Source of the DNA: Gammaproteobacteria bacterium
GTDB lineage: Bacteria; Pseudomonadota; Gammaproteobacteria; Eutrophobiales; Eutrophobiaceae
Assembly: GCA_965208655.1 (NCBI GenBank)
Contig: CBDBPJ010000003.1
Location: forward strand, 449,324 to 513,323
Direction of reading: 5' to 3'
Length of the DNA stretch: 64,000 nucleotides
Shown in pieces: positions 28,254-60,244 of the stretch. How positions within the stretch are numbered: position 1 is the stretch's first letter; each line of letters begins with the position of its first letter. Below the pieces are notes generated by a model. It saw only the letters and a program-made list of their open reading frames with translations. It was not told the DNA's origin and searched no databases. Position numbers and translations under genes: made by a program.

Positions 28254-29036
28254 TCAGTCCGTATCTGGCAACTGTTCCGGTTTCATTACCGGCGCCCGCC
28301 CCAATAACCCCGCCTTGCGCTTCTCCTTCAACCGGTAACTCTCACCCTTGATATTCAGGGTGGTGGCATGGTGCAGCAAACGGTCCAGGATCGCCGTGGC
28401 CAGCACCTGGTCACCGAAGATCTCGCCCCAGTCGATGAAGCTCTTGTTGGAGGTGAGGATGAGGCTGGCCTTCTCATAGCGGCGTTGGATGAGCCGGAAC
28501 AACAAACTGGCATCCTCCCGGGACAGGGGCAGGTAGCCCATTTCGTCGAGTATAAGGACTTTGGGGTAGACCCATTGCTGCAGTTGTTTCTCCAGGCGGT
28601 TCTCATCCCGGGCCCGTTTCAGTTTGCTGAGCAGGTTGTCCAGGGTCAGGAACAGGACCCGGTGCCCGGCTTCCACGGCTTTCACGCCCAGGGCGACGGC
28701 CAGGTGCGTCTTGCCCACTCCCGGCGGTCCCAGCAGGATGACGTTCTCGCCCCGTTCCACAAACGCCAGGCCCGCCAGGGTCTTGACCAGTTTGCGGTCC
28801 AGGCTCGGCTGGAACGTGAAGTCGAACTGTGCCAGGGTCTTCACCCAGGGCAGGCGCGCCTGCCGCAGTCGGCTGTCCACCCCGTTAACGTGGCGTCCCT
28901 GCCATTCGACCCGTAAGGCCTCGGTTAAAAAGGCCGGATAATCCCATTCCTGTTTGGCGGCCTGTTCACACACCGTCTCCAGTTGTGCCGGCAGGTGCTG
29001 GAACTTCAGCTTCGTCATTAATTGTGTCAGTTCCAT
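28254..29036 (-). CDS. istB: IS21 helper ATPase IstB
   Basis: Walker A GPPGVGKTH, Walker B LILDEMGY, IstB-type C-terminus. The start is taken at MELTQLMTKLKF (29036), overlapping the end of istA. Confidence 0.9.
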   Translation of the reverse strand: MELTQLMTKLKFQHLPAQLETVCEQAAKQEWDYPAFLTEALRVEWQGRHVNGVDSRLRQARLPWVKTLAQFDFTFQPSLDRKLVKTLAGLAFVERGENVILLGPPGVGKTHLAVALGVKAVEAGHRVLFLTLDNLLSKLKRARDENRLEKQLQQWVYPKVLILDEMGYLPLSREDASLLFRLIQRRYEKASLILTSNKSFIDWGEIFGDQVLATAILDRLLHHATTLNIKGESYRLKEKRKAGLLGRAPVMKPEQLPDTD

Positions 29037-30217
29037 TGTCCCGCCTCCTCGTACGCAGCCAACTCCCGTCGCTCTACCTGCAAGGCCTCCCGCCACAGCG
29101 CTGCATGATGGGCCGGGATACTCTGCCAACCGGCGCCGGCCGGGCGCAACCGGTGCTCGGCAATACACCGGTCCTGGCCGTCCACCACGCGTAAGCGGTC
29201 ATCCAGGCCGATGTGCACCGTCACCGGTTGACCACAGTACACTGCCGGCACACTGTAGCGGTTGCCGCGCACCTCGATATACCCGTCCCAGGCCACAAAC
29301 CGCTGTTCCCGGTAAGCCGTATCAAAACGCACCGTCGGTAAGGGGGATAACTGTCCACGCTCTGCCTCAAACCGGTCTATGACGCGCTGCCGATGCGTCC
29401 CGTGCATGCGTGGGTCCGCCTCGTCCCGTAACCAACTCTCCAACTGCTGGTTCAGATGCGCCAGGGTCTCAAACTGCCGGTAGCGCACAAAGAAGTGTTC
29501 CTTCACATAACGCACCATGCGTTCGGTCTTGCCCTTGGTGCGCGCCCGGTACGGCCGGCACGCCTTCGGCATAAATCCGTAATGCCCCGCCAGGTCCAGA
29601 AAACGCGGATGAAACTGCACGCCTTCCCCCACTCGATGCGCAATCACCGCCGACTTCTGGTTGTCCACCAGCACCGTCTTCGTTACACCGCCCAGGTACG
29701 CAAAACTGCGCACCAGACACTCATAGGTGTGCGCCGCATCCTGACTGACCGTGCCCCACACATGAAACCGGCGCGAATACCCCAGCGTGTTCACCGCAAT
29801 AAACACCTTCTGCTCAAGTCCGCCTATCGCCGTCCAGACTTCGCCCCAGTCATGCTGTAACTGCTCCCCTGGCCCAGTCTCAAAACGCACCGTCGCCCGG
29901 CTCGCACGCAACGGACGCTTGGGCCGGATATAGGCCCGGATCAAACTCACTTCACCCGGATAACCCTGTCCCTGCAACTCGCGCTGAATCACCATCGCAT
30001 TCCACACCCCCGCCTGCAACAACCGGTCTATCGCCGGCTTGTACGGGTCCAGAATACTGCCCCGGGCACGCGGCCGTTTCCCGGCCGGCGCACCGCCTCG
30101 CTTCAATGCCCGACTCACCGTCCTGGGGTGTACCCCCAGCTCCCCGGCAATGTCTTTGATATACACCCCGTCGTCGTGTTTGTGTTGTATCATCAGATAG
30201 TCTCCTCGCTTGAGCAT
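29027..30217 (-). CDS. istA: IS21 transposase IstA
   Basis: 396 aa. N-terminal HTH (IAGELGVHPRTVSRALKR) and a DDE integrase core (HDWGE...VLVDNQKSAV...RPYRARTKGKTER). Confidence 0.9.
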   Translation of the reverse strand: MLKRGDYLMIQHKHDDGVYIKDIAGELGVHPRTVSRALKRGGAPAGKRPRARGSILDPYKPAIDRLLQAGVWNAMVIQRELQGQGYPGEVSLIRAYIRPKRPLRASRATVRFETGPGEQLQHDWGEVWTAIGGLEQKVFIAVNTLGYSRRFHVWGTVSQDAAHTYECLVRSFAYLGGVTKTVLVDNQKSAVIAHRVGEGVQFHPRFLDLAGHYGFMPKACRPYRARTKGKTERMVRYVKEHFFVRYRQFETLAHLNQQLESWLRDEADPRMHGTHRQRVIDRFEAERGQLSPLPTVRFDTAYREQRFVAWDGYIEVRGNRYSVPAVYCGQPVTVHIGLDDRLRVVDGQDRCIAEHRLRPAGAGWQSIPAHHAALWREALQVERRELAAYEEAGQWN

Positions 30218-31152: not shown

Positions 31153-32283
31153 TCATGTAGGCCCTAAACGCCAATCTTCAAAATCGAGTAGATTGCGAAT
31201 ATAAAGTTCGTACTGCTCCTCATTGTCGCTACTTTGATCAATATGATTGCTTCCACCGAGTAGATTAAGAAATCTGTCCAACTCACCGGCACGAAGTACG
31301 GGAATTTTCAGTTTGTATCCCCATCGCAAGCGCGCCTCATTACAAGCCTCCCCTTTCCCGCGAATGGAAAGTGTTGTGGAGTGATCTTCACCTTCGATGG
31401 TGGAATAAAATTTCTGGACTGCGTAATTTATGCTGTCGGCCTTGTAGAAATAGAAAGATCCGGCTCCGAGAGGTCGCGTGTCTGGCGCTACCATTGATTT
31501 CTTGTAGTCGTCAAAACTGACATAACGAACCCGGGCCAATCTAGTCTGATGATATAAAATTTCGTAATATCCTGCATGATTGTTATCGGAGCGAATTTCG
31601 CCACGGGTCCATTCTTCATGGCGAGCTATATGCTCTTCTGCGTCAGTGACCCTCAGGGTAAATTCTGGGAACACGGAATGGTAGAAATTAGCGTTACTTC
31701 CGCTATCGTCGATTAAAAGCGACCACTCAGCAGGATGGCTCAAATACAGTTTTACCCTTTGTAAAGGCGACCTGTCCAAGCCAAAGCGTTCACGCCACAT
31801 CCGTTCAATATCGTGAGGTTGTGCAGTATCATTTATTGGGGTATTTGTGTCACAGACGCGAGTATAAATATGGTGAGGGCGAACTTCGTCATATTTTTCG
31901 ACAAGATAGTAGGGTTTATGCGGAGCATCTGTTATTACAAGAACGTCAAGTAAAATTCCGTTGAGGATGATTTCATTTAGATAAAATTCCGGGAATCTAC
32001 GCTGGAAAAATTTGTTGGCATTACTCCGAAACAAGCCAGCAAAATTTGTTTGGGTTCTTCGTCCGGCGTCTGTATTTATTGGATGTAGGGAAAAATTTTT
32101 GTCATCAACTCCAAATATCAAAAATCGATCACCAGCATGTTTGGAGTTAGCAAGACATAGAACATCATGAATGAGATCAGCTTTTCTTTTGTGATGCTCA
32201 CGTTTGAAGTCCCAATATGCTCCTTCAGCTCTTCGGTTGATCAAGCTAGAGATAGTGCTTAGTAGAGTATCTTGTACGACCAT
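31153..32283 (-). CDS. AlbA_2/Schlafen-like putative DNA-binding domain protein with an uncharacterised C-terminal domain
   Basis: 376 aa. The N-terminus (AEGAYWDFKREHH...IHDVLCLANSKHAGDRFLIFGVDD) matches the pattern of the divergent-AAA/AlbA_2 domain (E.K...ANT.GG.L.GV.D). AT-rich codon usage. Confidence 0.5.
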   Translation of the reverse strand: MVVQDTLLSTISSLINRRAEGAYWDFKREHHKRKADLIHDVLCLANSKHAGDRFLIFGVDDKNFSLHPINTDAGRRTQTNFAGLFRSNANKFFQRRFPEFYLNEIILNGILLDVLVITDAPHKPYYLVEKYDEVRPHHIYTRVCDTNTPINDTAQPHDIERMWRERFGLDRSPLQRVKLYLSHPAEWSLLIDDSGSNANFYHSVFPEFTLRVTDAEEHIARHEEWTRGEIRSDNNHAGYYEILYHQTRLARVRYVSFDDYKKSMVAPDTRPLGAGSFYFYKADSINYAVQKFYSTIEGEDHSTTLSIRGKGEACNEARLRWGYKLKIPVLRAGELDRFLNLLGGSNHIDQSSDNEEQYELYIRNLLDFEDWRLGPT

Positions 32284-32419: not shown

Positions 32420-32530
32420 CTACAATCGAAAGGCTGCTGGCAACCATCGATATAGTGTCGGGATGGACACCCCCAAATTATTTGCTACTTCACGGGGCGG
32501 GATACTATCCTGCAGTAACCCCTTGGCAAC
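32420..32530 (-). pseudogene. Serine recombinase (resolvase/invertase) C-terminal HTH fragment
   Basis: The translation ...AKGLLQDSIPPREVANNLGVSIPTLYRWL resembles the C-terminal Hin/resolvase HTH. No catalytic domain lies upstream in frame. Confidence 0.45.
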
Positions 32531-33268
32531 CGTAAATTTGGAAGCATCCTTCGGAACGTCCTTGCCGGCGATTTGTCGGCGAGATTGGCGTGAAGGCCAG
32601 CAGCGTTGACCGCCAGGCCAGTCTGTCCAAACTGCAGACAGGTCTGGGCGTATGCGAACCATCGGCACACCGGGAACCGGTCAGGCAGCCGAGCAGACCG
32701 CTTAGAAATATTGGCACAGATTAGCACGCGAGCAACATCGCTAGCAAACGGGGCGGGGTATCGATCCCGCGGGAAATCTGTGGCCGCAAGGTGCACTACA
32801 CCCGAGTGGAGTTCCTGGATGTCTTCAACTCATCAGCTTCGTAGACCAGGGCAAACGCATTCAGTTTCACGAATGATGCCAGGAGGATGCCATTCTTGCG
32901 GCCATGTAGCTGGCGTCCCAGAAGTGGGATCAGTTCACGGTCAACGGCGGCGAGGAATACAAGGCACTATGCGCCCGGTTAGTGGCAGAGCACTGCTTCA
33001 AGCAGACAAATCCGGAATTTCAGGACACCATCAAGCAACTGCGCCAGTCCGGCCGGCCGCCGTGTGCCCGGAGCATAGCAAATACAAGATCGAGGTATTG
33101 AACGGTGAGTCACCAGCCCGTTTCAGGCCATAGCAACCCTTAGCTTCAGTCATTTCAGCCGCAGGCGTTATTGAATGGAAGCGATGAGACGATTTATACT
33201 TATATCTGGATGCAGTTCCCTCGTCTTATTGGGCGCTAACAGAGATACAGAAACCCCTAATTGATAAT

Positions 33269-33703
33269 ATGTGCTTGTCTTTACTCATATCTACAATTGC
33301 AATATCGATTGCACTTCTCAGCTTTGTTCTTTCTGTTTATCTTGCATTCAGGGACAGATCACATCTTAGTGTTGAGGCTACGTATCTACACAGTTGGGAA
33401 AACATATCTGACGCTATCTATCTTCACATAGTAAACGATGGCCGTCGGCCAATAACAGCCAGGCGTCTGGTTTTGGAATTCTTGAATGGAGACACAGATC
33501 AACACGCACTGAAACATAATGATAGAGTGTTGCGTTTACTAGAAAGTGAAGATTATGAAATAGCACTGGATTCAAGCAATTCAAATATCGTCGAATGGGC
33601 AAGATTACAAATATCAATAGCTTATGTCGAAGATTCAAAGGGCCATCAATATAATGCTAATAACTTCATAAACTGCCTTGTAGAGTATGCTAAAAATATA
33701 TAA
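33269..33703 (+). CDS. Hypothetical single-pass membrane protein
   Basis: 144 aa. N-terminal TM helix (LLISTIAISIALLSFVLSVYLAF) and an AT-rich soluble domain with no recognisable motif, followed by a hairpin terminator. Confidence 0.45.
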   Translation: MCLSLLISTIAISIALLSFVLSVYLAFRDRSHLSVEATYLHSWENISDAIYLHIVNDGRRPITARRLVLEFLNGDTDQHALKHNDRVLRLLESEDYEIALDSSNSNIVEWARLQISIAYVEDSKGHQYNANNFINCLVEYAKNI

Positions 33704-33883: not shown

Positions 33884-34282
33884 ATGGATAGGTATACAGC
33901 CGAAAAAAGATCTTCTTTGATGTCTTTGGTAAAAGATAAGAATACGAAACTGGAGTTACTTGTCAGGTCAACGCTACACAAAAGCGGTCTACGTTTCAGA
34001 CTTCATCGTAAAGATCTTCCCGGCTCTCCGGATATCGTTTTGCCTAAACACAAAACCGTGATATTCGTGAATGGATGTTTCTGGCATGGCCACGACTGTC
34101 CCAAAGGACGTCGCCCTACCAGCAACCAAGAATTTTGGAATGAAAAGCTTGATAGAAATATGGCGCGCGATAAAGCGAATTATGTCCTACTACATAGATT
34201 GGGTTGGAGTGTGAAGATAATTTGGGAATGTGACTTACTCAATACCACAGCTAATATAATTGACAGCGTAAAATCCAGTTAA
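33884..34282 (+). CDS. vsr: Very short patch repair endonuclease
   Basis: 132 aa. Vsr hallmarks: RSSLMSLVKDKNTKLE, PGSPDIVLPKHKTVIFVNGCFWHGH, WSVKIIWECD. Confidence 0.9.
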   Translation: MDRYTAEKRSSLMSLVKDKNTKLELLVRSTLHKSGLRFRLHRKDLPGSPDIVLPKHKTVIFVNGCFWHGHDCPKGRRPTSNQEFWNEKLDRNMARDKANYVLLHRLGWSVKIIWECDLLNTTANIIDSVKSS

Positions 34283-34438
34283 ATTGGAATAATTCAGCAG
34301 AATAATTTGTATAAATTCTTCCATGCGTAGAAGGTGCGATATTGCGATTTCATGTAATATGGCTTCAAATGAGTCATCATCGTAAAGAGCACAAATTCAG
34401 GGAAAAATTGGACTTATTGTTGTTTAAATACAGTTGAG

Positions 34439-35647
34439 ATGAAATCGGAAATACCAAATTGCATCATTTGCGACCAAGATAATTCGGTCCTGAGGTCCAC
34501 AGTTCTTCCTTCGGAAAATCCTTCCTGGCCTAAATTTAGAGTTGCCGACCTTTTTTCAGGTTGTGGTGGCCTGTCGTTGGGAATACAAATGGCGTCTAAC
34601 GCTCTAGGTTACTCCCTAGATGTCAGGCTTGCGTTGGATTCAGACCAAGTAGCAATGAACGTGTATCAAAACTTATTCCCGTCAGCGAGGACTTTTTGTG
34701 TTCCTATAGAAGACTTATTCGACGGAGAGATCGGCTCTCCGAATTCTGAAACAGAAAGTGAGGTCAAGCGGCTTGTCGGTCCACTAGATATTTTACTGGG
34801 TGGCCCGCCATGTCAGGGGCACTCGAATCTAAACAATTATTCAAGGCGTGATGATCCAAGAAATGGGTTATACATCCGGATAGCTAGGGCGGCCGAAGTA
34901 CTACATCCATCGGCTATTCTCGCTGAGAATGTCCCCACCGTAACTTATGATGTTCGCAAAACTGTCCATCAAACCATAGGGAGGCTCAGTGAGATTGGTT
35001 ATACAATCGGACAGGATGTTGTAGACCTGTCGAATTTAGGTGTGCCACAGAAGCGACGCAGGCATGTAATAATAGCGGTTCAAGAAGATTACGATATCGA
35101 TGTTCAGAGGGTACTTGAAAGGTTAAAATTACCCATATGCGATCACATCCCAAGAAATGTTCAATGGGCTATCAGTGATCTGGAAGATGTTATTAAACCG
35201 AACCTTTTCAACTCACCTTCTCAACCCTATCCGATCAACCAATCCCGGATCAACTGGTTATTTGACAATGACGAGAGCGATTTACCCAATGTTCTGAGGC
35301 CACGTTGCCACCGTTCTGACCACAGCTACACTGCCATGTATGGTAGGATGAAATGGGATCTTCCAGCCCAAACTGTGACTACTGGTTTTAATTGCATAGG
35401 GCAAGGTAGGTACATTCATCCTTCTCGCCGAAGAGTAATTACTCCCCACGAAGCCGCGAGGCTACAGATGATCCCGGATTTCGTAGATTTTAGCACCGTT
35501 ACGGCAAGGAAACACTTGGCGAAGCTTATAGGGAATTCTGTGCCACCGCCGCTGGCGTTCGTCACCGGTAAGTTGATGATCCCGCATTTGAGAGGAATGT
35601 CTCTGTCCAGCCAAACTATTCGGAATACTGGAAGAAGACCTAGTTAA
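34439..35647 (+). CDS. dcm: DNA (cytosine-5)-methyltransferase (system A)
   Basis: 402 aa. Motif I FSGCGGLSLG, motif IV GGPPCQGHS, motif VI ENV, motif VIII QKRRRHVIIA, motif X GNSVPPPLA. Confidence 0.9.
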   Translation: MKSEIPNCIICDQDNSVLRSTVLPSENPSWPKFRVADLFSGCGGLSLGIQMASNALGYSLDVRLALDSDQVAMNVYQNLFPSARTFCVPIEDLFDGEIGSPNSETESEVKRLVGPLDILLGGPPCQGHSNLNNYSRRDDPRNGLYIRIARAAEVLHPSAILAENVPTVTYDVRKTVHQTIGRLSEIGYTIGQDVVDLSNLGVPQKRRRHVIIAVQEDYDIDVQRVLERLKLPICDHIPRNVQWAISDLEDVIKPNLFNSPSQPYPINQSRINWLFDNDESDLPNVLRPRCHRSDHSYTAMYGRMKWDLPAQTVTTGFNCIGQGRYIHPSRRRVITPHEAARLQMIPDFVDFSTVTARKHLAKLIGNSVPPPLAFVTGKLMIPHLRGMSLSSQTIRNTGRRPS

Positions 35648-35652
35648 TTACA

Positions 35653-37881
35653 ATGCGAAACCTCAAACCGATCAAATTCACTGTTGCTTCAGAACTACTT
35701 AGAGAACTGGGTGAGCGGTTAGTCGGTCGTCAGTATATCGCTCTCGCCGAATTGGTCAAGAACAGCTTTGATGCCGACGCATCCAAAGTTGAGATTCGTA
35801 TCCAAAACGATTGGATTGAGATATCCGACAACGGTCACGGCATGTCCGAGTATGACTTTGCAAATCGTTGGATGCGCGTTGGTTCGACCCATAAGGTCAA
35901 GGAGAAGTTGTCGCCGGAGTTAAAGCGTCCGTTAACGGGTTCAAAAGGGGTAGGACGGTTAGCTGCTCAATTCCTTGCGCATGAATTAGAGCTGACTTCT
36001 GTCCCAAAAAAGTCGCGACTGAAAAATCAATCAGCGCTTTGTGAGTTATACGCGATGGTAGATTGGGACACGGCAGTCCAGGCTGGAGAATTAACTCATG
36101 CAGAGGCACTATACGAACTGGACCAATCTCCGAGCGCAGTTTTCCCTCTCGGAAATCAACATGGTACTACGATAACTCTGAGAGGTCTCAAACATAAATG
36201 GGCATCTGAAGAATTTGAAGCCTTGGCCAGAGAAATATGGTTCCTCCAGCCACCATTCCGCTCCTTGAGACGGGTTTCCAAGGTAGACTCCAGCGATTTT
36301 GAAGTTGACTTTTCATCAACAGATCCAAAGGCGGTTTCTTTGTTCAAAACCCAGATGTCCCGTATATTGGACCTCTATACATCCCGTCTTGTAGGAAAAC
36401 TTTCATCTGTTGATAAATCGCAGAAAAAGCGAAAAATACAATTATCACTAGAACTAGAAAGTCAATCCGCCACAGCCTACGAGTATCAAGTTCCTATTCA
36501 CGGTGATGGCATATGTTTAATCGACTCACTTGAATTTGAAATTCGTATTTTTACATTAAAGCGCCGGCAACCTTATGGGATACCAGTACAAGATGCGCGT
36601 GAATATATGGCCGATTGGGGAGGGGTGCATATTTACGATGCAGGATTTCGAATACCATATGCCGGACCAGACTCGGATTGGTTGAAGCTAGAGTTCGATC
36701 ACTCGCATCGCTTAACACAATCCCAACTTCTCCCGGACGAATTGAACGTTCCGATGGGATTGAATTACCTACCAACAAATTCACGTGTTCTCGGTATCGT
36801 AAACATTGATACATCACTTGAGGCGAGGGATTCGAATACAAAACAACCTCCTTCGAATCAATACTTGCAGATACAAGTATCCCGAGATCGTTTGGTTGAC
36901 AACGAAGCGTTCCGCCAACTTCGAGACATCGTCAGGTACGCTATTGATTATTACGCAACCCGCCTAGCAGTTCTACGGCTTCAAGAGAGGCAGGATCAAC
37001 GGGCTGTGGGAAGCCCTTTATCCCTAATTCAAAACGTATGGGATGTACTAGGTCAACATGAAGATGTAATTCCTCAGTCAGTAGCAAGCCAACTTAGGAC
37101 TGAATTAAACAGGACTATCGATTCCGTTCGCGAACAATCCGAATGGGCAAAAAGCCAATCTGGATTGCTCGGAGCAATGGCAACAGTCGGGGCGACGGCT
37201 ATTGCATTTGATCATCAATTCAACCAGCAACTCAATATTTTGGAATCCCACATTACTTCTCTAAATAACCTGATTAACACTACCGGAGATCTGAAGAAAT
37301 CGATTAGTGTCATTTCTGACCAAATTTATAAATGGATTCAAGACGCACGTGATACACGCACGATATTCTCACCAATTACCGACGAAAGAAACAGGACGAC
37401 AGTAAGCCGCTTTAAGGCTAGACCGTTAGTTGAGAGCTTGAGCAACAACCTGAGAACTTTTCTTCGAGGGGTAAATGTGGACCTATCGCGTATCGATAGT
37501 GATTTATTGCTACCCGAGACTAGCTACCCGGTATGGATGGCAATCTTCCACAACGTTTTTATGAATGCTTTCAATGCAATGCTGGATAGCGACGTTAAAC
37601 AGATAACGGTATCATCATTTAAAAGAGGCGATAGAAGAGGAATTCGAGTCCACGACACGGGAATAGGCATCGATCTAGACATGGCGGATGAATTATTTAA
37701 ACCCTTAGTACGAGACTTGGAGATTTCCTCAGAACGTCGGGCATTGGGGTATGGAGGTACAGGATTGGGTTTAGCTATTGTAAAAATGTTGGCCACAGAC
37801 TTGAAGGGGGACGTTCGCTTCATCACCCCGGAAGCGCCATTCAAAACATGCTTTGAAATAGCATGGAACGAGGAGCAATGA
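35653..37881 (+). CDS. Dual GHKL protein: N-terminal MORC/HATPase_c_3-like ATPase + central H-box-like segment + C-terminal histidine-kinase-type HATPase_c
   Basis: 742 aa. The N-terminal Bergerat fold has ELVKNSFDADA (aa 33-43), DNGHGM (59-64) and GSKGVGRLA (96-104). There is an H-box-like AFDHQFNQQL with the His at residue 521. The C-terminal kinase boxes are HNVFMNAFNAM (N), HDTGIGI (G1), LFKPL (F) and GGTGLGLAIV (G2). Confidence 0.7.
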   Translation: MRNLKPIKFTVASELLRELGERLVGRQYIALAELVKNSFDADASKVEIRIQNDWIEISDNGHGMSEYDFANRWMRVGSTHKVKEKLSPELKRPLTGSKGVGRLAAQFLAHELELTSVPKKSRLKNQSALCELYAMVDWDTAVQAGELTHAEALYELDQSPSAVFPLGNQHGTTITLRGLKHKWASEEFEALAREIWFLQPPFRSLRRVSKVDSSDFEVDFSSTDPKAVSLFKTQMSRILDLYTSRLVGKLSSVDKSQKKRKIQLSLELESQSATAYEYQVPIHGDGICLIDSLEFEIRIFTLKRRQPYGIPVQDAREYMADWGGVHIYDAGFRIPYAGPDSDWLKLEFDHSHRLTQSQLLPDELNVPMGLNYLPTNSRVLGIVNIDTSLEARDSNTKQPPSNQYLQIQVSRDRLVDNEAFRQLRDIVRYAIDYYATRLAVLRLQERQDQRAVGSPLSLIQNVWDVLGQHEDVIPQSVASQLRTELNRTIDSVREQSEWAKSQSGLLGAMATVGATAIAFDHQFNQQLNILESHITSLNNLINTTGDLKKSISVISDQIYKWIQDARDTRTIFSPITDERNRTTVSRFKARPLVESLSNNLRTFLRGVNVDLSRIDSDLLLPETSYPVWMAIFHNVFMNAFNAMLDSDVKQITVSSFKRGDRRGIRVHDTGIGIDLDMADELFKPLVRDLEISSERRALGYGGTGLGLAIVKMLATDLKGDVRFITPEAPFKTCFEIAWNEEQ

Positions 37882-37886
37882 AATCT

Positions 37887-39113
37887 ATGAAAATATTGGT
37901 TTATGAAGATCTGCCCGCAATCGCCAAAAATTGGTCTGATAAGATACGCTTGGCTTGTAGTGGGGCAGATGTAGTAACCGCGAAACGTGAGGACTTTTTG
38001 CGTTTGTTAAAACTATTAAATCATCGGAGAACTGAATGGAGAAATGGAAGGATAGAATTCTCTTCGACCGAAGTGCATGTTGTTGACAACACAGATGTAA
38101 TCATAATTGATTATGACTTATTTCAATATTCGGATGCTGCGGACACTACAGGTAGCAGGTTGGCTTATCTTCTCCGCTGTTTCACTGAATGTGGGATCAT
38201 TATTGTTCTCAACGAGTATGGGAATAATGTCTTCGATCTAAAACTTGCCAACCCTCCTGAGGGGTTCGCTGATTTAAATGTCGGTGGCGAACAGATTGGA
38301 AACCCTGGCCTTTGGCAAGTTCCCTTCAATGGTTTTCGACCGTGGTATTGGCCTAATATCTCTCACGCGAGGAAAAACTTTGAGATATGTGTCAAGGAGG
38401 TTCAGGACAACCTTGAAAAGCCGATTATTGAGTTCTTAGGTCTGGACCGTGTGATCGACTGGATGCCGCAGCGTGCGTGGGACTTTGTCTTGGGTAAACA
38501 GATCGTTGAAGAGATAACATTTAATGATTTTATTAAAGATACCCACGGTGGTATTGACGACAAAGATAAGCTCATCCCGAAGCAGATAGCACGAGTTGCA
38601 GCGGCAAGAATCGGTGCATTACTCAACTCGATAATCCTGCCGGATCAAAGCCTGCTCGTGGATGCACCACATTTGATTTCGCGGTTTCCCAGTCTAATAT
38701 CAGGTTCACGTGATGACATCGAAACATGGAATAAACTATGCAATCCTATCGAACAAAAAATAGATAATTTATTGATTGAACGATTGAAACAATATAGGTT
38801 CCAAAAATCGCATTGGCTTTGGAGACCAGCTTGGTATTGGCCCGAAATTAATAGAGATGAAGAAATCGAAGAAGTGAAAAGCCCTTGGACGACAGTGGAC
38901 ATCGACTGGGTGTTTTGCGAAGATATATCTCGATTCGTGCCTATTGAGGATGCTAAAGACTTCAGAGCACTCGTTTCTCCACCGTATATTAAGCGCTTTG
39001 TGTTAGATAGTAATTCACCAGGCGGGCTGAAATACGTTGCACAGATAAGCCAAGTCGGGGCACCGGACCCGTCTAAAGTGAATTATGTGCCTCAAGCGGC
39101 GTTTGGCTTGTAG
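37887..39113 (+). CDS. Receiver (REC)-like N-domain protein with an uncharacterised about 290-aa C-terminal region containing two PWYWP motifs
   Basis: MKILVYEDL (beta1 acidic pair), DVIIIDYDL (beta3 Asp) and IIIVLNEYG (beta4) resemble CheY-like receivers. The start is chosen at the ATG 11 nt after AGGAG; alternative in-frame ATGs are at 37863 and 37878 (ATGA overlap with the upstream stop). Confidence 0.5.
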   Translation: MKILVYEDLPAIAKNWSDKIRLACSGADVVTAKREDFLRLLKLLNHRRTEWRNGRIEFSSTEVHVVDNTDVIIIDYDLFQYSDAADTTGSRLAYLLRCFTECGIIIVLNEYGNNVFDLKLANPPEGFADLNVGGEQIGNPGLWQVPFNGFRPWYWPNISHARKNFEICVKEVQDNLEKPIIEFLGLDRVIDWMPQRAWDFVLGKQIVEEITFNDFIKDTHGGIDDKDKLIPKQIARVAAARIGALLNSIILPDQSLLVDAPHLISRFPSLISGSRDDIETWNKLCNPIEQKIDNLLIERLKQYRFQKSHWLWRPAWYWPEINRDEEIEEVKSPWTTVDIDWVFCEDISRFVPIEDAKDFRALVSPPYIKRFVLDSNSPGGLKYVAQISQVGAPDPSKVNYVPQAAFGL

Positions 39114-39121
39114 AATCCGAC

Positions 39122-39766
39122 ATGCCCATTGAACCGGCAAATATTGCCGCTCGAATCGCCACATTTGATATCCTGTCCAGATTTTTACATGTGAGTCAAT
39201 GGAATTACAAAGATTTTACCCCGCTCCATGAAAAAACTTATAAGGAATATCACGAATTAGCGTTGCCGGTAGATATTATGCAACTTAAAAGAAATTTCGA
39301 TAATAACAAAGAAGTCGACATGATGGAGAGGAACATGTTTCTGTATCTTGAACCTACAAAGAGCAAGAGCATCTTGCCCCTCGTAACAATCCAGAGTTCT
39401 AATAAGTGGTGTCATTTCAGAATCTATGCGTTACTCACTATGCTCGACAGAGATTCGAACCTTCAATCACTGGCCATAAGATATGAGACCGACGAAGGAG
39501 ACGGTCAAATTGGGAGTGCAACTGGAGCACATGACTTTTGCCATGCACAGTTATGTAGATATATAACTGGTAAAGTTCCAGCCTCAACCCCTGCTTGGCT
39601 ACCAGAATCGCAACCTTCATTCCCACTAGATGCCGAAGATCAAATTGGTCTTGTAGTTTGCATGCTAACGTCGATTTACGGCGGCGCCCACGTACTTCGA
39701 AAATTAAGTGCCAGCGGAGACCGGGATCTTCGAAAGCACATGCGAAAAGTACGAGCATTGCGGTAA
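39122..39766 (+). CDS. Hypothetical protein, last gene of system A
   Basis: 214 aa, 8 nt after the upstream stop, same AT-rich codon usage. No motif is recognised with confidence (contains GAHDFCHAQLC and a C-terminal RDLRKH). Confidence 0.45.
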   Translation: MPIEPANIAARIATFDILSRFLHVSQWNYKDFTPLHEKTYKEYHELALPVDIMQLKRNFDNNKEVDMMERNMFLYLEPTKSKSILPLVTIQSSNKWCHFRIYALLTMLDRDSNLQSLAIRYETDEGDGQIGSATGAHDFCHAQLCRYITGKVPASTPAWLPESQPSFPLDAEDQIGLVVCMLTSIYGGAHVLRKLSASGDRDLRKHMRKVRALR

Positions 39767-39767
39767 T

Positions 39768-39974
39768 TTAGCATTGAAATATTCGGCCTGTCCTATCTAC
39801 CAGGGTTTCGTTATTCCATAGGACATCCAGCGCCAGTTTCAGACCTTCCTGTGAGGCCTTGGCTCCTCTGGCTTTGTCCTCATAGATTTTATCGCATTGC
39901 ACCTGGCGGGGTGCTTCATACTGCAAGCGTAAATCCTGATCCTGGGTGGATACCCAGGCATAACCGACTTGCAT
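39768..39974 (-). pseudogene. Serine recombinase N-terminal fragment
   Basis: MQVGYAWVSTQDQDLRLQYEA...IYEDKARGAKASQEGLKLALD matches the catalytic N-terminus (Y.RVST.DQ) of resolvases/invertases. It is truncated after about 60 residues, directly abutting the end of system A. Confidence 0.6.
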
Positions 39975-54262: not shown

Positions 54263-55438
54263 ATGCAATTCGTACCTTTTTCATACGCCCACTCCACCGA
54301 CCTTAAGGTCGATGCTGTCTATCAAGGAGGCCGCCTGGGAAATGCTGGAGATGACCCCTTGCCTCACCTTCTTAACGTCAGCAATTCAGGAGGATTCAGA
54401 TATCGGGGTCAAGTGCACAAATTGGAACTGGTGGTTCTGACGTCTTCAGGCAAAGATCCAGACTGGCCGGACCTGCTTGAACGCGAGACCGGTATTTACA
54501 CTTACTTCGGAGACAATAAAAGACCTGGTCGAGGACTGCACGAAACCCCCAGAAAGGGGAACGAGCTTCTCCGGCGGATTTTTGATTTGGCTCATTCAGG
54601 CATTGAAGGACGTCGGCAGGTACCCCCTATATTGTTGTTCGCGAATACAGGGGAATGGAGAGATGTTGTATTTCTTGGACTTGCTGTTCCTGGCACAGCC
54701 GACCTCCGTGCATCAGAAGACCTTGTTGCCATTTGGAGAATTGCCAAAGGAAGTCGATTTCAGAACTATCGCGCCCGTTTCACAGTTCTCGATGTGTCAT
54801 TTATATCACGAGCCTGGATTGCTGATATCATCGCCGGCAATCCTCACTCTTCCAACGCACCTGAGGCGTGGTCAGCCTGGGTTCAAACCGGCCGTCCGCG
54901 CTCGCTGCTCGCCGCCAGATCATTGGAATACAGAACCAAAGGCGAGCAAATTCCAGATAACTCAATTGATCGTTCCATCTTGGAAAGAATTCACGAATAT
55001 TTCGAAAATGATTCTCACGGTTTCGAACGCTGTGCTGCTGAGCTTGCAAAACTGCTCCTCCCTGATATTGCAGAAATCGATTTGACCAGGCCTTCTCGTG
55101 ATGGGGGCCGCGATGCAATTGGTAAACTGCGTATCGGAAGCGGGGCATCCGGGATTTTGGTTGACTTTGCGCTTGAAGCCAAATGCTACGCTCTTTCCAG
55201 CGGCGTAGGTGTAAAAGGCATGTCCCGGTTGATCTCCCGGCTGCGTCACAGGCAGTTTGGCATACTGGTTACAACTAGCTATGTAAATGTTCAGGTTTAT
55301 CGTGAGATCAAAGAGGATCAGCATCCCATTATCGTTATCTCTGGTGCAGATATCGTGGCGCTATTACGAGCTGATGGCTACGCTCATCCAGAATCCGTCA
55401 GAACGTGGCTGAAGCAAAACTTTGTCCTCAATGAGTGA
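54263..55438 (+). CDS. Candidate modification-dependent restriction endonuclease: SRA/YDG-like N-domain + Mrr-cat-type PD-(D/E)XK C-domain
   Basis: 391 aa. VVLTSSGKDPDWPD...GIYTYFGDNKRPG..LHETPRKGNELL parallels the SRA pattern (SGGY.DD.D.G....YTG.GG....Q.L..GN.AL). The C-terminal part, SRDGGRDAIG...LVDFALEAKCY, supplies D...E.K. Confidence 0.5.
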   Translation: MQFVPFSYAHSTDLKVDAVYQGGRLGNAGDDPLPHLLNVSNSGGFRYRGQVHKLELVVLTSSGKDPDWPDLLERETGIYTYFGDNKRPGRGLHETPRKGNELLRRIFDLAHSGIEGRRQVPPILLFANTGEWRDVVFLGLAVPGTADLRASEDLVAIWRIAKGSRFQNYRARFTVLDVSFISRAWIADIIAGNPHSSNAPEAWSAWVQTGRPRSLLAARSLEYRTKGEQIPDNSIDRSILERIHEYFENDSHGFERCAAELAKLLLPDIAEIDLTRPSRDGGRDAIGKLRIGSGASGILVDFALEAKCYALSSGVGVKGMSRLISRLRHRQFGILVTTSYVNVQVYREIKEDQHPIIVISGADIVALLRADGYAHPESVRTWLKQNFVLNE

Positions 55439-59020: not shown

Positions 59021-60244
59021 TCACGCCCTTTTCAGTTCAACGATTTTCGCGTCAGCGCCGGCCAGGTATTGCGCCCACTGGCTCATAAGCAGCGCTCTGC
59101 GCTGAAATAAATCGGTCCTGAAATAAGCACCTTCGACGCCCGGTACCGCGCGCGCCAACGCCGCCTCTGCGATCTCCCGGGGCTTGCCGGTATCGGCACA
59201 CCAATCGCGAAACGAACTCCGAAATCCGTGGACCGTTGCCCGATGATGATAGCCGGCGCGCTCCAACAGTTTCGCCAGCGTCATGCTCGACATCGGTTTA
59301 CCCGGCCGACGCGGCGACGGAAAAACCAGCCCGGAACCATCCGCCAGTATCCGGGCCTTGTCCAGCACGGCAACCGCGGCATCACTCAACGGTACCCGGT
59401 GCTCCCGATTCATCTTCATCCGCGTCGCCGGTATCGTCCAGGTCCGGGTCTCGAGGTCTATCTCATCCCAGGTCGTGCCCAGGACCTCACCGGTTCTGGT
59501 CGCAGTCAGTATCAGGAACCTGAACGCGAGTTCCGCGGGAACTGAGCAACTGCCGCCGCCGACGGCCTCCAGGGCCGCGGATACATCCTTGTGTGGCAAG
59601 GCCCGTAAATGCGTCTTCGCGGCCTTCTGCTTCGGCAGGGCCCCGTCAATGACCTCGCCGGCAGGGTTGGTATCAATGTAACCGTGCGCTTGCGCCCACC
59701 GGAATATTGCCTGCATGTTCTGGCGCAGGCGTCTGGCAATGTCCGGTGTCTTCGACCACAACGGCACCAGGACGTGCAGGACGTCCTCGCGGCCTACCTG
59801 GTCAATGGGAATGTGACCGATAGCAGGCCCCGCGTGCTTCTCTACAATCCGGCGCCAGGTCCAGACATTGGGACCGGCCCGCCAGCGCGGTTTCAATGCC
59901 TCCCAGGTCCTTATCGTTGCCGTTGCAAAGTCCGGTGTACGCTCCCGGCGCTTCTCCGCCAGGGGGTTCCGCCCCTCGACCCTGGCCGCGCGCTGGTTGG
60001 CCAGTGCAAGTTCCCGCGCGTCCGCCAGGCCCACGTGACGGAAACTGCCCAGGCCTATGTCATGGCGCTTGCCGTTGATCACCAGTCTCTGTACCCAGGA
60101 CTTTGAACCGGTGTACCCCACCCGCAGATAAAGAGTGTCGCCGCACCGGTATGTCCCCGGTCGCTTGATTGCTTTCGCTTCTGCCGCCGTCATTTTTCGC
60201 ATGTCTGTTCCCGGTATAGTGGTTACCCACATTTTTTCCAACAA
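59021..60244 (-). CDS. Tyrosine-type site-specific integrase (P4-like, DUF4102-type N-terminal arm-binding domain)
   Basis: 407 aa. N-terminus GTYRCGDTLYLRVGYTGSKSWVQRLVINGKRHDIGLG. The catalytic region has TATRTGE, HGFRSSFRDW and the terminal Y in GAYFRTD. Confidence 0.9.
   Translation of the reverse strand: MLEKMWVTTIPGTDMRKMTAAEAKAIKRPGTYRCGDTLYLRVGYTGSKSWVQRLVINGKRHDIGLGSFRHVGLADARELALANQRAARVEGRNPLAEKRRERTPDFATATIRTWEALKPRWRAGPNVWTWRRIVEKHAGPAIGHIPIDQVGREDVLHVLVPLWSKTPDIARRLRQNMQAIFRWAQAHGYIDTNPAGEVIDGALPKQKAAKTHLRALPHKDVSAALEAVGGGSCSVPAELAFRFLILTATRTGEVLGTTWDEIDLETRTWTIPATRMKMNREHRVPLSDAAVAVLDKARILADGSGLVFPSPRRPGKPMSSMTLAKLLERAGYHHRATVHGFRSSFRDWCADTGKPREIAEAALARAVPGVEGAYFRTDLFQRRALLMSQWAQYLAGADAKIVELKRA

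Follow-up and report, generated by a model that had tools for sequence, protein, structure and literature searches.

A conserved kinase/receiver module with an obligatory third protein beside vsr and dcm in a gammaproteobacterial defense island

The sequence analyzed here is a stretch of 64,000 nucleotides (nt) from a member of the Gammaproteobacteria (assembly GCA_965208655.1, contig CBDBPJ010000003.1, positions 449,324 to 513,323 of the forward strand), referred to below as the window. At 33884-39766 it carries a cluster of five genes, system A, in which vsr and dcm are followed by the genes of a GHKL/histidine-kinase protein of 742 amino acids (aa), a receiver-like protein and a 214-aa protein, p214. 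The three genes downstream of dcm are a conserved, co-inherited module of signaling type, and system A is an uncharacterized clade of the methylase-linked GHKL-kinase/receiver superfamily, which is derived from the paraMORCs and of which the Ambrosia system is a relative. Within that superfamily it is set apart as a distinct, unannotated clade with a non-canonical H-box, a non-canonical receiver and an obligatory third protein for which no fold match was obtained. An original prediction, made from the DNA and its open reading frames (ORFs), had presented the locus as a candidate undescribed, methylation-linked two-component defense system; its claims are taken up where our results bear on them.

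Conservation of the Cassette

Loci were analyzed with tblastn and iterated local hidden Markov models. An alignment-based scan that covered one genome for each species led to 80 loci, to which loci from plasmids and metagenome contigs were added; a search of genome contigs with a single protein had returned nothing. The window clade comprises 48 loci with downstream sequence, the kinases of which are ~31-79% identical to that of the window. In every one of these the kinase gene is followed, on the same strand and in the same order, by a receiver-like gene and, directly 3' of it, by a p214-family gene, and the stops and starts of these core genes usually overlap or abut. The original prediction had raised the question whether the receiver-like and p214 genes accompany the kinase, which they do in 48/48 loci. 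It had also called the 214-aa protein an orphan, a label that has to be dropped, given this fixed position and a family that an exhaustive profile search extended to ~700 clusters at 50% identity, the 150 matches listed being all stand-alone proteins of at most ~340 aa.

A C5 methylase is present within the fetched locus in 46 of the 48, so that its linkage to the module is near-constant. In most loci it adjoins the core; both sides and both orientations occur. At least two methylase subfamilies are represented, the members of which share 44-72% or 24-31% identity with the window Dcm. Vsr was found in only 29/48 loci, in several of them fused to the methylase, and is absent from about 40%; an invariable linkage of both Dcm and Vsr was therefore not borne out. 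Additionally, several actinobacterial and alphaproteobacterial loci carry an N6 methylase. At L003:7217-8932, L004:7214-8932, L006:7155-9002, L028:13411-15045, L032:8604-10313, L040:5395-7299 and L082:3098-4762, a single ORF matches the profiles of C5 methylase and Vsr alike; these are apparent methylase-Vsr fusions beside the core. Around the three-gene cores of L008 (8875-13190) and L016 (8932-13025), the neighbors checked were a PP2C-type phosphatase, a P450 and an MFS transporter, and L008 retains a Vsr gene downstream.

The 48 loci span many bacterial phyla, archaea and plasmids. Among the >1,700 homologues of the kinase, the best 120 are full-length, 60-79% identical and drawn from several phyla. 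Identity reaches 64-72% with Latescibacterota and Dehalococcoidia, which are distant phyla, complete cassettes occur in the archaea Hodarchaeota (L021) and Nitrososphaerales (L024), and in L084 a four-gene unit lacking Vsr is set amid metabolic genes. On these comparisons of sequence and position, the cassette is judged to be horizontally mobile. A cassette of the window clade is also found on the Mycolicibacterium plasmid pJCM18538.

More distant homologues of the kinase (22-27% identity, with most of the length aligned) keep the same three-gene layout, with an Eco57I-type N6 methylase and a variable third gene. In eight loci (L060, L050, L055, L065, L068, L071, L073 and L077) the third gene encodes an HNH protein with the signature CxxC...HxxH...N...CxxCN (PF01844; e.g., L060:11882-12529), in L075 (11734-12756) a metallo-β-lactamase-fold protein, and in loci of the L061/L072 type a protein of ~250 aa without assigned family (L061:12256-13011). 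In the HNH clade, the receiver-like proteins measure ~215-230 aa and consist of a REC part and ~90 further aa. The REC part is homologous between the clades (hhalign 83.5%, E-value = 8e-6); the C-terminal part is not, and it varies in step with the third gene. This displacement of genes in one slot suggests that the third position is an effector slot and that the receiver's C-terminal domain would be the matching adaptor or co-effector. We do not claim homology of p214 to the ~250-aa third gene product of the N6-methylase clade: hhalign gave an E-value of 0.29 and then of 0.016, with a probability <3%, and the alignment of H-D-F-x-H-A-Q and P-L-D in p214 with H-P-x-Y-H-x-Q and P-P-M-D in that protein is without statistical support.

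Gene Organization of System A

The ORFs confirmed the five tightly packed genes of the original prediction, all on the forward strand. The vsr gene (33884-34282) encodes a very-short-patch repair endonuclease of 132 aa and is an accessory gene of the cassette; it is separated by 156 nt from dcm (34439-35647), which encodes a C5 cytosine DNA methyltransferase of 402 aa. After a gap of 5 nt follows the gene of the 742-aa GHKL/histidine-kinase protein (35653-37881), then the receiver-like gene (37887-39113, with an alternative ATG at 37863) and, 8 nt further, the p214 gene (39122-39766), the third gene of the core. As claimed earlier, the kinase stop overlaps or abuts the receiver start, depending on the start codon: ATG 37863 would give a product of 416 aa and a 19-nt overlap with the kinase stop, and ATG 37887, located 5 nt past that stop, a product of 408 aa. 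Of the two, ATG 37887 is the more probable start, since a GAGGAG Shine-Dalgarno sequence lies 11 nt upstream of it and the window-encoded entry P0121 of the protein search is also 408 aa long. Scans for promoters and terminators performed no better than on shuffled controls.

Both Vsr and Dcm are secure assignments by profile score, above the curated cut-offs, as had been asserted. Vsr matches its Pfam family with an E-value of 4.1e-31 and TIGR00632 with 146 bits (cut-off 97.85), and Dcm matches PF00145 with an E-value of 1.5e-46 and TIGR00675 with 121.6 bits (cut-off 100.65). The FSGCGG, GPPCQ and ENV motifs of Dcm are intact, as seen in the alignment with the Dcm of system B, the other Dcm/Vsr operon of this region.

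The Three Core Proteins

The 742-aa protein combines a HATPase_c_3 domain, a DHp helix and a HATPase_c domain. Pfam places HATPase_c_3 at aa 29-130 (2.4e-23) and HATPase_c at aa 631-737 (1.7e-20), the latter corresponding to the C-terminal histidine-kinase catalytic domain (nt 37543-37863). The N-terminal MutL/paraMORC-like ATPase extends over aa ~9-195 (nt 35677-36237), and profile matches to PDB sequences assigned residues 24-86 to MutL/PMS2 and residues 617-728 to AdeS/CpxA/EnvZ. The N-terminal domain keeps the Bergerat motifs E33-x3-N37, D59-x-G-x-G and G96-x2-G-x-G, and in 25 close homologues E33, N37, D59, G61, G63 and G96-G101 are invariant or nearly so. The same holds for H521, D668, G670, G672 and G699-G706 in the C-terminal half, where the kinase domain has also kept its N, G1 and G2 boxes. 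The putative phospho-histidine of the DHp helix is His521 (nt 37213-37215, codon checked), invariant in 25/25 close homologues and aligned in nearly all of 77 wider sequences. Across these 77 family members the H-box reads H-E; D-H-Q (nt 37213-37218) is restricted to the window, L001, L002, L034 and L045. No HisKA match was returned by Pfam for this protein, and an exact-sequence look-up gave no record.

Concerning the receiver-like protein, its N-terminal domain (aa ~1-135) is predicted to fold as a receiver of the (βα)5 type. The AlphaFold2 model has a predicted local distance difference test (pLDDT) score of 78.7 and a predicted template modeling (pTM) score of 0.84. A Foldseek search of PDB returned receiver domains for nearly all listed and all of the best matches (best E-value = 1.5e-3, probability mostly 0.9-1.0), with only the N-terminal part of the protein aligned, and BFVD gave receivers only. 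A profile search against PDB sequences gave nothing useful. The putative phospho-acceptor is Asp75 in VIIIDYD (D83 in the 416-aa numbering; nt 38109-38111, codon checked), at the end of β3. It is conserved in 47/47 diverse receiver-like sequences and completes an acidic pocket with D8 (46/47) and D7 (43/47). Both residues singled out in the original prediction, His521 and the Asp of VIIIDYD, are thus real and conserved, and its signaling pair stands in the form of a kinase core, in which the His is conserved, together with a receiver-like protein with a REC-folding N-terminus. The remaining ~270 aa of the receiver-like protein form a clade-specific C-terminal domain with D259, H262, E345 and R370 invariant in the 47 sequences. 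For this domain the Foldseek searches of PDB and BFVD with the full-length model gave no fold match, and no DNA-binding fold was matched in the protein.

For p214 the model is confident (AlphaFold2, pLDDT 84.6, pTM 0.86). Foldseek found no PDB match better than an E-value of 0.36, and the NTF2-like and Pur-alpha matches were dismissed as noise. A profile search against PDB sequences returned no match, nor did Pfam among 73 diverse members of the family. The family has its own invariant residues, R120, E122, H137, H141 and Q143, in the motif RFETxEG...HDFxHAQ. From the gene slot that it occupies, p214 is a candidate effector.

Neither the receiver-like protein nor p214 falls into any family of Pfam (even at E ≤ 10), NCBIfam or PADLOC, and precomputed Pfam annotation was blank for all 120 receiver-like homologues; nothing places them in a housekeeping two-component system, an outcome that the original prediction had named as one of its refutations. 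Its statement that the proteins downstream of dcm contain no nuclease or restriction domain holds in that Pfam, NCBIfam, PADLOC, the PDB sequence search and Foldseek detected no nuclease domain in any of the three. It needs one qualification, namely that residues 9-195 of the 742-aa protein match the BbrUII/HgiDII restriction-enzyme family (NF050001) with an E-value of 3.4e-26, at a score of 92 bits against a cut-off of 550 and with profile positions 3-183 of 659 aligned. The only PADLOC matches to window proteins were a generic type II restriction enzyme and the N-terminal GHKL part of MzaB (E-value = 0.0042 for MzaB).

Relation to Described Systems

The closest description of this architecture is a computational one. 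Bellieny-Rabelo, Pretorius & Moleleki (2021; PMC8011034) reported proteins of HATPase_c_3+HEF_HK+HATPase_c composition that adjoin Response_reg_2 proteins with a linkage of 91.6%, with C5 methylases upstream, frequent Vsr and HNH_2 as the commonest nuclease; they speculated on a regulatory role. System A shares with these elements the derivation from paraMORCs and a soluble kinase built of HATPase_c_3 at the N-terminus, a DHp helix whose His is conserved, and HATPase_c at the C-terminus. In both, the adjoining gene is receiver-like, its product having a conserved Asp and, after β1, an acidic pair, and a C5 methylase lies nearby, often with Vsr. It differs in that the window subclade has Gln instead of Glu/Asp after the core His, and in that its receiver lacks the Thr of β4 and the Lys of β5 reported as conserved in Response_reg_2 (PMC8011034). 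Furthermore, p214 is an obligatory partner in the window clade, and a conserved third gene is not described in PMC8011034. The window proteins gave no match at E ≤ 10 to PF19192 (Response_reg_2) or to PF19191 (HEF_HK), the presence of the latter in the searched Pfam copy being unconfirmed, and in four other homologue sets neither family matched at E ≤ 0.01; homologues in L061, L072, L081 and L082 likewise gave no match to PF19191. A distant DNA search of Escherichia coli genomes for members of the PMC8011034 set, with an Enterobacter plasmid homologue as query, returned no match.

Ambrosia (bioRxiv 10.1101/2025.09.30.679545) consists of AbrR-AbrA-AbrB-AbrC-AbrD, namely an XRE protein, an N6 methylase, a HATPase kinase, a REC protein, said to carry a wHTH (winged helix-turn-helix), and an HNH protein. 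It is anti-phage in Pseudomonas aeruginosa, where every gene is needed and where the receiver Asp is required as well, since D60A abolishes defense; cluster reporters are induced on infection, and the authors favor transcriptional control. Like Ambrosia, system A has a methylase, a HATPase kinase, a REC protein and then a further gene in one cluster. Compared by description, it carries a C5 methylase and Vsr instead of an N6 methylase, p214 where the HNH protein AbrD stands, no XRE/HipB-like regulator, and a receiver-like protein that is twice as long and has a different C-terminal domain. In our data set the loci with Ambrosia architecture (L060, L065, L068, L073 and L077) have kinases 23-25% identical to that of the window over most of their length. 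The claim that system A is undescribed therefore cannot be maintained as it stood: a kinase/receiver pair beside C5 methylases and Vsr was already in PMC8011034, and a preprint of 2025 had demonstrated anti-phage activity for Ambrosia. With respect to the classical systems on its list, the original prediction reasonably found no named match; it overlooked these two. For the C5/Vsr/p214 clade itself, a full-text literature search found no paper.

MORC and paraMORC GHKL ATPases were described in restriction-modification systems with cytosine methylases and Vsr by Iyer, Abhiman & Aravind (2008; PMC2292703), and system A has the same linkage of an N-terminal MutL-like GHKL domain to a cytosine methylase and Vsr. 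BbrUII, one of the single-chain enzymes matched above, is a working restriction barrier (PMC5829577). Unlike system A, where the output would lie in separate proteins, the paraMORC and BbrUII/HgiDII proteins have the nuclease in the same chain or work with a helicase. The BbrUII/HgiDII match is confined to residues 9-195 of the window protein, the C-terminal half of which is a histidine-kinase core.

System B, too, is a restriction-like operon that has a GHKL ATPase alongside Dcm and Vsr, and the original prediction had taken system A for a variant of it that carries a kinase/receiver module in place of the effector module. Between the two, the GHKL proteins are 31% identical over 108 aa, covering the Bergerat-fold motifs only, and the Dcm proteins are 32% identical. 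These values rule out the derivation of system A from system B, and the two are independent systems; the 50% identity of their Vsr proteins is ordinary for that family. In logic, system A resembles Detocs, in which an immune histidine kinase signals to a receiver protein that carries or controls an effector. Detocs, which Rousset et al. are said to have described in 2023, reportedly lacks a methylase; its parts are a TPR sensor, a receiver protein that acts as buffer, and an effector of PNP type that degrades ATP. Classical type II restriction-modification differs from system A by pairing the methylase with a recognizable restriction endonuclease. Canonical two-component systems have H-[ED] in the kinase and D-D-D-T-K in the receiver, whereas system A keeps the three acidic residues without the Thr and Lys.

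Possible Mode of Action

Our favored reading, to which we give about an even chance of being right, is that system A is a restriction-modification-like defense cassette with Dcm as self-mark, the kinase as sensor and the receiver and p214 as output. Enzymes of the Vsr family repair the T:G mismatches that follow such cytosine methylation. Dcm would constitutively mark host DNA with 5-methylcytosine (5mC), an activity suggested by its intact motifs and by the frequent co-carriage of Vsr, which in turn would mend the mismatches arising from it. The Vsr linkage implies that the host genome is chronically methylated, and for the window clade it therefore favors self-marking over a methylase that is off until infection. 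The 742-aa protein would be the sensor, its MutL/paraMORC-type ATPase engaging DNA, and foreign or unmarked DNA would switch on the kinase core and lead to autophosphorylation at His521. The phosphoryl group would pass to Asp75 of the receiver-like protein, by analogy with the equivalent D60 of Ambrosia. Finally, the receiver C-terminal domain and p214 would carry out the response, most likely an attack on DNA, because sister clades have either an HNH nuclease or a protein of metallo-β-lactamase fold in this slot. A more specific version is phosphorelay-gated restriction, in which the MutL-like part acts as a clamp that detects DNA lacking the 5mC mark of the cassette, and transfer from His521 to Asp75 of the non-canonical receiver licenses p214, with its R-x-E...H-x-x-x-H-x-Q site, and/or the D-H-E-R domain of the receiver, with an effector fold not seen previously; this we put forward tentatively, as less likely than not to prove right.

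Several observations weigh against the defense reading. The window subclade has Gln522 after His521 instead of Glu or Asp, and an acidic residue at this position is cited in the literature as necessary for HisKA kinase activity and autophosphorylation. In 47 receiver-like sequences Asn109 occupies the position of the canonical Thr and no Lys of β5 is conserved, so that true phosphotransfer is not assured. In L002 the methylase is swapped while the core remains ~64% identical to that of the window, and the 25 close homologues of the kinase display no obvious variable target-recognition region; the core may therefore not read the site of the methylase itself. L008 and L016 have the three-gene core and no C5 or Eco57I-type N6 methylase in the fetched locus (~9 kb each side) or in the adjacent ORFs checked. 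The searches listed above (Pfam, NCBIfam, PADLOC, PDB sequences and Foldseek) revealed no recognizable nuclease motif in the receiver-like protein or p214. Finally, pre-methylation by AbrA gave phage no protection from Ambrosia (bioRxiv 10.1101/2025.09.30.679545). The Gln, the missing Thr and Lys, the methylase swapping and the Ambrosia result are the reasons why we go no further than an even chance for the defense reading and leave a smaller, equal share of likelihood to each of two rivals.

One of these, which follows the model of the Ambrosia authors, would be a transcriptional switch in which the kinase senses infection, the phosphorylated receiver being a DNA-binding factor that induces the methylase and effector genes, with methylation not serving as a self-mark. 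The wHTH ascribed to AbrC, the infection-induced reporters and the failure of AbrA methylation to protect phage all point in this direction (bioRxiv 10.1101/2025.09.30.679545), and the size of the HNH-clade receivers is compatible with a REC domain plus a small DNA-binding domain. We nevertheless find it rather improbable for system A, where the receiver C-terminal domain, with its invariant D259, H262, E345 and R370, has more the look of an active site than of a wHTH and the searches matched no DNA-binding fold. The presence of Vsr in about 60% of loci implies chronic 5mC methylation of the host, and translational coupling links the core genes into a single operon downstream of dcm. No XRE/C-protein was detectable, the upstream ORFs having no Pfam family. 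The other rival keeps the defense and dispenses with the phosphorelay: the kinase-like half would be a second ATPase or dimerization module of an ATP-driven clamp, and a pseudo-receiver would recruit p214. The same Gln after His521 and the same absence of Thr and Lys argue for it, together with the homology of the 742-aa N-terminus to MutL/PMS2 and to BbrUII/HgiDII, and with paraMORC GHKL proteins that serve restriction-modification systems without kinase chemistry (PMC2292703). The conservation of His521 (in the 25 close homologues and nearly all of the 77 wider sequences) and of the N, G1 and G2 boxes speaks against a clamp of this kind, D8 in 46/47 and D75 in 47/47 sequences are hard to explain without phospho-chemistry, and D60A abolishes Ambrosia defense (bioRxiv 10.1101/2025.09.30.679545); we rate it, too, as a minority view.

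A role outside immunity appears very improbable. The module could be an accessory of epigenetic marking or very-short-patch repair, with a MutL-like stimulator of Vsr, or a regulator of methylase expression. Escherichia coli MutL does stimulate Vsr (cited in PMC2292703), Vsr, Dcm and a MutL-like domain meet at this locus, and a regulatory role was speculated on in PMC8011034. However, some 40% of the loci lack Vsr, and in the sister clades the module goes together with N6 methylases and with genes of HNH or metallo-β-lactamase type. Its distribution, patchy and mobile, extends across domains, plasmids and islands, and the relative Ambrosia is anti-phage (bioRxiv 10.1101/2025.09.30.679545).

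Genomic Surroundings

System A sits in a mobile defense island, a context that the original prediction had recognized. The block is AT-rich as described there, with a GC content of 0.40-0.47 against 0.55-0.61 further out. On its left lie an IS21 IstB/IstA pair (28254-30217, reverse strand) and a Schlafen/AlbA_2 gene (31153-32283), and further right an AspBHI-like 5mC-dependent restriction enzyme (54263-55438, forward strand; RE_AspBHI_N, 2e-64, plus Mrr_cat) and, on the far side of the island, an rve transposase and a tyrosine integrase (59021-60244, reverse strand). The flanking serine-recombinase fragments and the AlbA_2 gene are present as predicted; in place of the insertion-sequence debris, IstB and IstA look intact.

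At the right edge of the low-GC block, a serine-recombinase N-terminal fragment beginning MQVGYAWVSTQDQ (39768-39974, reverse strand; Pfam Resolvase, 1.6e-5) abuts the stop codon of p214. A resolvase-type C-terminal helix-turn-helix (HTH) fragment ending ANNLGVSIPTLYRWL (32420-32668, reverse strand; HTH_23, 1.3e-3) lies on the opposite, left side of the block at a distance of ~7.1 kb, and the two fragments may be halves of one recombinase gene that was disrupted. Because these fragments flank it, the low-GC block, system A included, looks like an insertion into a serine-recombinase gene or the product of a rearrangement within such a gene. Neither target-site duplications nor terminal inverted repeats were found around the block, and the window contains no tRNA genes.

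The IS21 pair and the tyrosine integrase bracket a defense island of ~32 kb. Within it the AspBHI-like modification-dependent enzyme is accompanied by two C5 methylases, which raises the question of how 5mC self-restriction is avoided. On contig L083, the closest homologue of the cassette, IS21 and AspBHI_N/Mrr_cat genes are also found beside the cassette (L083:10137-11121). Just 5' of vsr, within the low-GC block, an ORF of 144 aa (33269-33703, forward strand) has an N-terminal hydrophobic helix and no family match. Neither this ORF nor the one at 32606-33133 belongs to a Pfam family, and no XRE/C-protein was detectable among them.

Biological Implications

The clade of system A is widespread, with >1,700 kinase homologues and ~700 p214 clusters in bacteria, archaea and plasmids. 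Beyond the two ATPase domains it is invisible to Pfam, NCBIfam and PADLOC, and it is therefore missed by current defense-system censuses. Its linkage to Vsr makes the window clade a cleaner test case than Ambrosia for the question of whether the methylase provides a self-mark. If the defense reading holds, system A would represent restriction-like immunity wired via histidine-aspartate signaling and not via direct recognition of DNA by a nuclease. If the phosphorelay-gated version were true as well, it would add a new family of nucleases or toxins and a new coupling of epigenetic self-marking to two-component signaling, present in both bacteria and archaea.

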